Shown here: positions 13,662 to 15,475 of the stretch, piece by piece | Numbering within the stretch: the stretch's first letter is position 1 | Layout: every line of letters starts with the position of its first letter | NCBI GenBank assembly: GCA_965153355.1 | Contig: OZ231126.1 | Location: 23,808,001 to 23,872,000 of the forward strand | DNA from: Flaccisagitta enflata | Lineage: Eukaryota | Direction: 5' to 3' | DNA: 64,000 nucleotides | Translations under genes and position numbers: made by a program | The notes under the pieces: model-generated | The model's input: only the letters and a program-made list of their open reading frames with translations | Databases searched by the model: none | Told to the model about the DNA's origin: nothing

Positions 13662-13831
13662 CTATCGCCCTTGCTCTTGAACGTATTCGTTGCACGGATC
13701 AATTAGAAGTAGGAGACATGCAGTCCAATCCCACTGAGAGGCCATTCTTCGACTCGTTTTATAATGGCTCTTCTTCTTCTTGAAAATGGTCTTCAATCTC
13801 GTCAAATCATGTGGGGCGGTCTTGGCTCTTT
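13662..13831 (-). CDS. Secreted prepropeptide A, terminal exon (ERAKTAPHDLTRLKTIFKKKKSHYKTSRRMASQWDWTACLLLLIDPCNEYVQEQGR*)
   Basis: Branch-like tactaat followed by tcatttatcag| acceptor, phase 1, matching exon 2. Contains RR, two Cys and a C-terminal GR-stop. Confidence 0.68.
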
Positions 13832-13889
13832 CTGATAAATGACAACATTTGGATGTATTAGTATGGAAGTTGTACCGTTGAGGTTGAGG

Positions 13890-13988
13890 TTCAATAGATG
13901 AATTAGACATGATAAATTTTCATGTGTTGAATTAGACATGATAAATTTTCATGTGTTGATCTCATCATGTCTAATTCATCTATTGAAC
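13890..13988. repeat. Small palindrome with an internal tandem duplication (in an intron of prepropeptide A)
   Basis: gttcaatagatgaattagacatgat ... atcatgtctaattcatctattgaac. Confidence 0.8.
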
Positions 13989-14014
13989 ATTTGGATGTAT
14001 GCATTTAAAAGCAT

Positions 14015-14562
14015 AACAGGTCGCACAAGGGCAATATGTGGTCAGCGATACCCGTTGCCCTGCTTTGCATGTTTGTGAATTAGAGTGAGAGGAAGCAGGG
14101 CAGCGGCCCCAAAAGGGGTCCTTTAGAACACAGGGGGACTTTTGTTCCATCCGTCCTTCCATCCATCCACCCCCCAGGCCCTCCCAGCCCTGGAATCTGC
14201 CCTCTCAGGCCTAAAATCTATCCTATCAGCCCTAAAATCTGCCTTCTCAGTCCTTGAATCCGAGAGGGCAGATTTCGGGCCTAAGAAGACTGAATTCAGG
14301 CCTGAGAGGGCAGATTTCAGGCCTGAGAGGACTGATTTCAGGCCTGAGAGGGCAGATTTCAGGCCTGAGAGGGCAGATTGAAGACCTGAGAGGGCAGATT
14401 TCAGGCCTGAGAGGTTAGATTGAAGGCCTGAGAGGGCAGATTTCAGGCCTGAGAGGGCATGGGGGGAAGAAGTTCAAGAACGGACAAAATGATGGATGGA
14501 CGAACAAAAGTCCCCCTGTGTTTCACAGGACTTTGTCCCCTTTGGGGCCGGTGCCCCGAAAA
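14015..14562 (-). mobile_element. Helentron-like element family D with 21-bp minisatellite (in an intron of prepropeptide A)
   Basis: Subterminal inverted repeats gggcagcggcccc.../...ggggccggtgcccc and (aggcctgagagggcagatttc)n. Confidence 0.65.
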
Positions 14563-14623
14563 CCATTTACGTAATGCTAGCTCTCCCTAGTTGGCCGAGT
14601 AACCACGCAACAGAGCGATTTAC

Positions 14624-14670
14624 CTGGTGAATTCATACGTTTTCCATCGTCTTCATGGTGTCCATGGATC
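14624..14670 (-). CDS. Secreted prepropeptide A, exon 2 (IHGHHEDDGKRMNSP)
   Basis: 47-nt exon bounded by tttttacag| and CAG|gtaaat. The only open frame of the three is the one required by the phase-2 upstream intron. Contains GKR. Confidence 0.72.
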
Positions 14671-14808
14671 CTGTAAAAATGATTCAGATTTACAACATTT
14701 TACGACAGAAACTTTACTTTTGTTTCACAACGGTGTAAACCATAATGATATGACGATATCAAGGCATGGAATTTCCATGTAATTCAACTCATAACGGCAT
14801 GAATTTAC

Positions 14809-14870
14809 CTTACAGCGTACGCCAAACAAACGAAAATGGCGATGATAGCAATGAAACTCGAACGGAACAT
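14809..14870 (-). CDS. Secreted prepropeptide A, signal-peptide exon (MFRSSFIAIIAIFVCLAYAV-R)
   Basis: ATG lies directly after the acceptor ttttaagtacag|. It encodes a basic n-region, a hydrophobic core and an AYA cleavage-like motif. Donor AAG|gtaaat, phase 2. Confidence 0.72.
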
Positions 14871-15475
14871 CTGTACTTAAAAAAAAATCTCTCCTAAGGT
14901 GAATAATCATAACTTTTATTCTACGCTCAGGAAAATTGGTTTTTCGTCTCGTTGCGGTTGAGGTTGTTTGTAAACAGTGTCTTGGAAGATCTCGATCACT
15001 TCGCACAGCCAAACTTCTTAATTGTAAAGCTGACCTGAAGTCACACGAGCGACCCATTGGTTGAAATGTACTAAATTCGTGCGACTTGAGGTTGTCGCAA
15101 TTTGGCTGTGCTTCGCGCCTAAAACACATTTACCATGCTGTAGAGAGAAACTCATGAAACTTTCCCGAGTGGCGTCGGCAGAGGTTGTGTTGTGTATATC
15201 TCCGCCCTGATAATCCAACCCTCCCTTCCCCCGTTCCCAACACTTTTTCCGTCAGAGCAACAGTCAACGCCGTCGCTGCGAGGAAACGACGAGAGCAAAC
15301 GCTTTTAAATCAAACGAGGAGGAAAAAAAAAAAAAGGCAAAGAGAAAGAAAGAGAGAGAAAAGGGAGGAAAAAAAGTTTTAATTTATGAGATGTAAAACC
15401 AAATCTCCCGTGTCTCTGAGTACACTGCTAGGCGCGAGCGATGATGGTGGAAAAGGTAGGTGGTCGTGTGTGTGC

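Follow-up and report, generated by a model that had tools for sequence, protein, structure and literature searches.

The stretch of DNA analysed here, called the window below, comprises 64,000 nucleotides (nt) from Flaccisagitta enflata (assembly GCA_965153355.1, contig OZ231126.1, positions 23,808,001 to 23,872,000 of the forward strand), and all coordinates count from its first letter. On the minus strand of the window lies a gene of three short exons, whose coding parts at 14870-14809, 14670-14624 and 13831-13662 (62 + 47 + 170 nt) were joined by script from their coordinates to give 279 nt, that is 92 codons followed by TAG, with phases 2, then 1. The gene is transcribed and both of its introns are removed at exactly the predicted sites. 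A lineage-restricted orphan secretory prepropeptide is the best reading of its product. The three-exon minus-strand chain, its GT-AG sites and its phases had been proposed in a first-pass annotation made from the letters of the window, and were borne out, with an identical 92-residue translation.

Structure of the gene

In the direction of transcription, the gene begins with a 5' untranslated region (UTR) at 14871-14975, of at least 105 nt, the limit being set by the ends of RNA contigs. The coding part of exon 1 (14809-14870) holds the ATG, a 19-residue signal-like segment ending in A-Y-A, a Val codon and the first two bases of an Arg codon, which places the first intron in phase 2. This exon ends in the donor AAG^GTAAAT (the caret marking the splice point) and is followed by intron 1 (14671-14808; 138 nt, GT..AG), which closes with the acceptor TTTTTACAG^G. 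Exon 2 (14624-14670) is 47 nt long and encodes a His-rich acidic stretch, G-K-R and four more residues before ending in phase 1 at the donor CAG^GTAAAT. Intron 2 (13832-14623; 792 nt, GT..AG) contains one foldback and one small hairpin repeat, and its acceptor, before exon 3, reads TTTATCAG^A. The coding part of exon 3 (13662-13831) encodes a basic spacer with K-K-K-K, then R-R (13751-13746), a predicted 25-residue peptide (13745-13671), Gly-Arg (13670-13665) and the TAG stop (13664-13662).

Behind the stop codon, the 3' UTR was followed over 13300-13661 with no splicing within it. The longest RNA contig of the locus, from the run labelled X3, extends 89 nt past 13300, and together with pieces from run X1 on 13317-13446 and 13448-13800 it indicates that the 3' UTR measures at least some 450 nt. 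No canonical AATAAA was observed.

Transcription and splicing

Sequence from 13450-13835, which takes in exon 3 and the stretch behind it and was sampled by 33 words, is present in six sequencing runs from three studies, with shares of 0.06-0.55. All six are RNA libraries labelled marine metagenome. Four runs from four studies (X1, X3, X6 and X7), including three of the six that bear exon 3, were placed on 13300-15250. Run X3 yielded one contig of 826 nt at a depth of 36.3, lying on 13300-13831, 14624-14669/70 and 14808/9-14975. This contig omits 792 nt (13832-14623) and 138 nt (14671-14808, with the cut moved one place), and both gaps are bounded by CT..AC on the plus strand, which is GT..AG on the minus strand. 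In run X6, an oligo-dT library from a different study, a single contig of 299 nt at a depth of 15.5 covers exon 2 and has the same joint between 13831 and 14624. Its other joint is displaced, running from 14672 to 14815 (14673-14814 omitted) with two other letters between. Of the two junctions for which the first-pass annotation had asked RNA reads, 14809^14670 and 14624^13831, both are therefore present in the X3 contig and the latter is present in the X6 contig as well.

The remaining two runs add less. X1 covers only 13317-13800, without a joint, and X7, a run of raw poly(A) reads of which about 6/100 was read, gave one partial read on an intronic repeat and was counted as no evidence either way. 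Unique intron bins at 14158-14289 and 14686-14751 have zero depth in all four runs, and such depth as there is within intron 2 falls on repeats. Since the introns are removed from them, the junction-spanning contigs derive from RNA and not from a carry-over of DNA into the libraries. The X3 contig reaches 14975 and the X6 contig 14969, and neither run has any depth from 15016 upward. Because both contigs end within 6 nt of each other, the transcript start is probably near 14975/14976.

Predicted precursor and its products

The N-terminus of the 92-residue protein consists of M-F-R followed by a 16-residue uncharged hydrophobic stretch ending in A-Y-A, and is called a signal peptide here on a crude rule of our own design, which it satisfies. 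Under this rule a basic residue must lie close to the start and none of the first 20 residues may be acidic; a 12-residue window must contain ten or more hydrophobic residues and no polar-charged ones, and small residues must follow at -3 and -1. Basic sites occur as K-R at residues 31-32 (with a Gly before them), K-K-K-K at 54-57, R-R at 64-65 and the C-terminal G-R. The pro-part has exactly two Cys, both of them after the last dibasic site, at positions 10 and 18 of the predicted 25-residue peptide, with seven residues (four Leu, Ile, Asp and Pro) between them. The precursor architecture claimed by the first-pass annotation, with its signal-like start, G-K-R, R-R, C-terminal G-R and a Cys pair in the 25-mer, can thus be read in the sequence.

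Precursors of peptide hormones are processed by convertases, by trimming of the carboxypeptidase E type and by peptidylglycine amidation. For the present protein, sequence rules suggest that exon 1 would supply a signal peptide cut after A-Y-A and that the 73-residue pro-part would enter the secretory pathway. If the analogy with precursors of neuropeptides and hormones holds, subtilisin-like convertases would cut after G-K-R and R-R, a carboxypeptidase would remove the basic residues and the exposed Gly would be converted into a C-terminal amide. The predicted products are a 10-residue His-rich acidic amide, with a computed neutral monoisotopic mass of 1212.5748 Da, and a 25-residue acidic amide, for which a mass of 2965.3448 Da is computed with one disulfide and a net charge of about -4.5. 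Within the 25-residue peptide, which holds the only Cys pair of the pro-part, a disulfide may form a seven-residue loop, and this peptide could act as an extracellular signal. Cleavage, amidation, disulfide and signalling role are all put forward on the basis of the same analogy. Between the predicted peptides lies a spacer of about 32 residues, which is strongly basic (isoelectric point, pI, 10.8; charge about +7.7) and contains the K-K-K-K site.

Generic prepropeptides of neuropeptides and peptide hormones are matched in the signal-like exon 1, the G-K-R, K-K-K-K, R-R and C-terminal G-R sites, the length of 92 residues, the placement of the predicted active peptide at the C-terminus and the single Cys pair. 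Unlike them, the present protein has no sequence relative in any of the searches described below, combines a basic spacer with acidic peptides, has a very hydrophobic ring (four Leu and one Ile) and occurs in one frameshifted variant.

Comparison with chance expectation

An open reading frame (ORF) that starts with ATG and reaches at least 92 residues was found in 67 of 2000 dinucleotide-preserving shuffles of the 746 nt of known mRNA, in which the median longest ORF was 44 residues. The crude signal-peptide rule was satisfied by three of the 858 ATG starts in the window with at least 20 open codons, namely the start of the gene studied here, that of one microsatellite frame and an ATG at 58963, discussed below. 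When the residues of the 73-residue pro-part were shuffled 200000 times, 2116 shuffles ended in G-basic, 22295 had an internal G-dibasic site and 150 had both, and in only six of the 200000 was there additionally a Cys pair, 3-12 residues apart, after the last dibasic site. The features of this test were picked after the sequence was seen, which makes it post hoc, and with that reservation the arrangement of cleavage, amidation and Cys features lies clearly beyond what the composition of the pro-part yields by chance. The ORF is unlikely to be a product of chance.

Natural variants

With a few percent of difference from the window, the RNA contigs serve as a small comparative set. Over 467 nt of UTR, the X3 contig has 13 listed substitutions and four indels (+1 at 13439, -5 at 13463, +2 at 13638 and -1 at 14880), none of the indels being a multiple of three. 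Over the 279 nt of coding sequence, two substitutions are listed, at 13773 and 14850, and both are synonymous; the change at 14850 is common to X3 and X6 and is the only one listed in the coding part of exon 1. A complex change at 13730-13740, in which 1 + 5 nt are missing and two substitutions occur, shortens the X3 coding sequence by a net 6 nt. The X3 mRNA, rebuilt by script, has a single intact frame of 90 codons, in which S-Q-W-D is replaced by E-H near the start of the predicted 25-residue peptide and the remainder is unchanged. In X1 the one listed coding change (13740) is synonymous, as worked out by hand. Both X1 and X3 cover exon 3, and in both the codons for R-R, Cys and G-R and the stop codon are free of listed changes. 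An in-frame coding indel together with synonymous coding changes and non-triplet UTR indels is the pattern that purifying selection would give.

Relatives and alternative readings

Homologues were sought with the 55-residue peptide encoded by exon 3, a query whose reach is limited at that length. It found no relative in a word-indexed search among proteins of 30-97 residues, none at E <= 0.001 with phmmer among 1.84 billion representatives and no Pfam family at E <= 0.1. Exons 1 and 2 are each too short for a separate Pfam scan, and the 85-residue open frame at 13665-13919 matched no Pfam family at E <= 0.001. Among PDB chains there was no match at E <= 10, in a library that excludes chains of fewer than 20 residues and in which melanin-concentrating hormone (MCH) itself could not show. 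The ESM Atlas gave no usable match, and tblastn of the three exon peptides detected no sequence paralogue in the window (best non-self E = 0.046). A scan of metagenome contigs left a single locus from 582 pattern matches, and its 18-residue match, which sits in a 44-codon frame antisense to a 376-residue prokaryote-type ORF, was judged to be chance. The statement of the first-pass annotation that the peptide is of no obvious family holds, six kinds of search having returned no relative.

The same annotation had seen a loose resemblance to MCH. Published descriptions of MCH-type peptides allow a comparison on features given in their text. In starfish, the MCH-type precursor is 88 residues long and carries a two-Cys peptide of 28 residues at its C-terminus after a dibasic site (PMC4772807), and the crinoid precursor has 91 residues and a 29-residue peptide with Cys at 11 and 22 (PMC9793003). 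The family is described as conserving its two Cys, the first of them followed by Met or Ile, with the residue penultimate to the second being basic (PMC4772807). In invertebrates the ring is longer by two residues than in vertebrates (PMC4772807), with 8 residues in vertebrates and 10 in echinoderms, among which D, W and R are conserved, in the crinoid peptide as well (PMC4772807; PMC9793003). The present precursor is alike in its size and layout (92 residues here versus 88 and 91), with a C-terminal two-Cys peptide (25 residues here, 28-29 there) after a dibasic site (PMC4772807; PMC9793003); its first Cys is at position 10, versus 11 in the crinoid peptide (PMC9793003), and it shares the Pro before the second Cys. 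However, a two-Cys C-terminal layout is also found in somatostatin-type and other two-Cys peptides and is hence not diagnostic (PMC4772807), and the more specific features described for the family are absent. Leu and not Met or Ile follows the first Cys, and Asp and not Lys or Arg is penultimate to the second (PMC4772807). The ring has 7 residues instead of 8 or 10, with one Asp and neither of the conserved W and R (PMC4772807; PMC9793003), and the peptide carries a C-terminal amidation signal, whereas MCH is not described as amidated in the available parts of PMC4772807 and PMC9793003. The exon-3 peptide, moreover, matches no Pfam family at the E <= 0.1 cut-off given above. The gene was not filed as MCH-type because two defining features, the residues around the Cys and the ring, were tested and found wanting, and that it should be a divergent member of the family is highly improbable. 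By description only, the layout is also like that of starfish Arnp24, a putative neuropeptide of no assigned family that has two Cys and a C-terminal amidation signal and lies in the C-terminal region of a small precursor (PMC4772807).

The reading preferred here, that of an expressed three-exon protein-coding gene encoding a 92-residue processed secretory prepropeptide without detectable relatives, is held with moderate confidence. As a reading of the sequence, a precursor is plausible and statistically non-trivial, although weakened by one frameshifted natural variant, and several further observations also count against it. Compared with the spliced form of the window, the X6 contig (depth 15.5) lacks 2 nt just before the first junction; read from the same start codon it would end after 25 codons, and there is no other ATG from which the downstream frame could be translated. 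A broken form is therefore present in at least one population, sibling species or paralogue, and could be a null allele, a decayed copy in a sibling species or a paralogue. Frameshifts at orthologous loci were named in the first-pass annotation as evidence that would tell against the gene, and this applies in part, the X6 variant transcript being frameshifted; X3 keeps the frame. The only protein-level difference seen, in X3, falls within the predicted 25-residue active peptide. Four X3 substitutions are counted but unplaced (12 versus 11 listed, 1 versus 0, 8 versus 6), one or more of which fall in exon 2, and X6 too has substitutions without a position, so that the rebuilt variant proteins may lack a few changes. 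With no homologue in any search there is no cross-species conservation to rest on, the variants all lying within a few percent of the window. The haplotype of the window also carries an out-of-frame upstream ATG at 14910 (14908-14910, minus strand), which opens a 40-codon frame overlapping the main start, and position -3 of the main ATG is a C. X3 and X6, with T>A at 14910 on the plus strand, do not have this upstream ATG, and in both variants the first ATG of the known 5' UTR is the start of the main ORF. Finally, the spacer is basic (pI 10.8) and the predicted peptides are acidic. Most neuropeptide precursors have acidic spacers.

Some of these points would also suit a real transcript whose ORF is not maintained by selection, either a young 'de novo'-like ORF or a non-coding RNA in which the hormone-like motifs are fortuitous or decaying. 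Such an explanation would account for the frameshifted form being the one assembled in run X6, for the failure of all searches to find a homologue or a Pfam family, and for the upstream ATG and weak start context of the window haplotype; an ORF of such length still arises in 67 of 2000 shuffles, and no exon reads were found in the roughly 6/100 of poly(A) run X7 that was read. It is nevertheless on the unlikely side, as a long ORF, a signal-like start (3/858) and an ordered arrangement of motifs (6/200000) are jointly hard to obtain by chance, and in X3 the coding indel is in frame with all four UTR indels not multiples of three and both listed coding substitutions synonymous. A secreted product with no signalling role is a further, doubtful, alternative. 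This would be a small protein of the gland, mucus, defence or pheromone type, used whole (73 residues, one disulfide) or active through its cationic middle (about 32 residues, pI 10.8), the acidic ends being pro-pieces. The charge layout, with a basic centre (about +7.7) between acidic ends, agrees with this, and the lack of conservation is in keeping with genes for secreted effectors or defence, which evolve fast. The contig depths of 36.3 and 15.5 point to a fairly abundant mRNA, although in mixed-community RNA depth is a poor measure of expression. However, the Cys pair lies in the acidic tail and not in the basic centre, and among substrates of the peptidylglycine amidating enzyme G-K-R and a G-R at the C-terminus specifically mark amidated peptides.

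On the preferred reading of a processed prepropeptide, the locus is an example of a short multi-exon peptide gene that can be recognised from raw sequence and then confirmed by public community RNA alone, in a class of genes that gene finders and homology searches tend to miss. If the predicted products are made, they would include a peptide of no known family in an organism barely covered by protein databases, and one more orphan signal awaiting its receptor. The frameshifted X6 variant poses the question of whether the gene is under selection or is being gained or lost within the lineage.

A second signal-like exon with shared upstream motifs

The ATG at 58963, at a distance of 44 kb from the studied gene, opens a second signal-like first exon (58963-58863, minus strand; 101 nt). 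It ends in phase 2, as does exon 1 of the gene described above, and its donor at 58862 is GTGAGT. This exon probably corresponds to another 'hidden' gene noted in the first-pass annotation. Two motifs are shared by the 5' regions of both loci and stand in the same order at each. The 12-nt motif TGTTTACAAACA occurs as exact copies at 14965-14976, at the 5' end of the RNA contigs of the studied gene and thus probably near its transcription start, and at 59079-59090 (both minus strand). These are its only two exact copies in the window, and with up to one mismatch there are four matches versus 0.78 expected, a number reached in none of 100 shuffles. It includes TGTTTAC, the core site of forkhead factors. 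A 17-nt motif, GATTTTTTTTTAAGTAC, or GATTTTTTT(T/G)TAAGTAC with its variable position written out, is found just before each ATG, at 14889-14873 and 58990-58974 on the minus strand; these two are its only matches in the window, and none of 100 shuffles reaches two. Outside the two motif blocks the 5' regions of the loci do not align, including in a global alignment.

The shared motifs are a lead, from sequence comparison, to a common origin or common control of both loci. That the studied gene is the founder of a family of signalling peptides, amidated, disulfide-looped and restricted to one lineage, in a poorly sampled marine organism, with the 58963 exon as a paralogue or co-regulated partner, is a tentative and rather improbable extension of this lead; if true, it would amount to a new peptide-hormone system with its own control module.

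Directly behind the donor of the 58963 exon, and in the same frame, lies an open frame at 58520-58858 (minus strand), which ends in R-R-R-R and repeated stretches of the G-Q-K-R type. An acceptor-like CTAG^G at about 58680, located by eye, would join this frame to the 58963 exon in frame.

Surroundings of the gene and repeats

Comparison of the 131 non-simple open frames of the window with Pfam gave a single match above threshold, to a GNAT acetyltransferase at 17409-17933 (plus strand, E = 1.9e-5), and a repeat hit below threshold. A weak match to the C-terminal domain of histidine N-acetyltransferase (HisAT), at 18829-19575 on the same strand and in the same neighbouring gene, is below the cut-off (E = 1.2e-3). 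The GNAT-bearing neighbour gene had no relative among proteins of 280-2000 residues, and no Rfam family or tRNA was found in the window.

The window is rich in repeats and microsatellites, several of which lie in intron 2 of the studied gene. One is a foldback element (14098-14556), built from a 21-bp tandem unit, whose inverted arms are up to 91 nt long. In the metatranscriptomes the repeat adjoining it at 14026-14091 has a depth of 760.6 in X1 and 395.7 in X3, and because of these depths it is taken to represent a repeat family that is transcribed and abundant. Immediately before the acceptor of exon 3 there is a small perfect hairpin repeat (13889-13992), with 25-nt arms that are 100% complementary, together with a 29-bp tandem duplication. 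Elsewhere in the window a dispersed repeat family is found beside simple repeats of the GTCC type, for example at 10604-10939, 33530-33898 and 60341-60730 on the minus strand and at 24761-25312 on the plus strand, and its open frames have similar peptide stretches. Long runs of (GT)n, (GA)n, (A)n and trinucleotides are spaced a few kb apart along the window.

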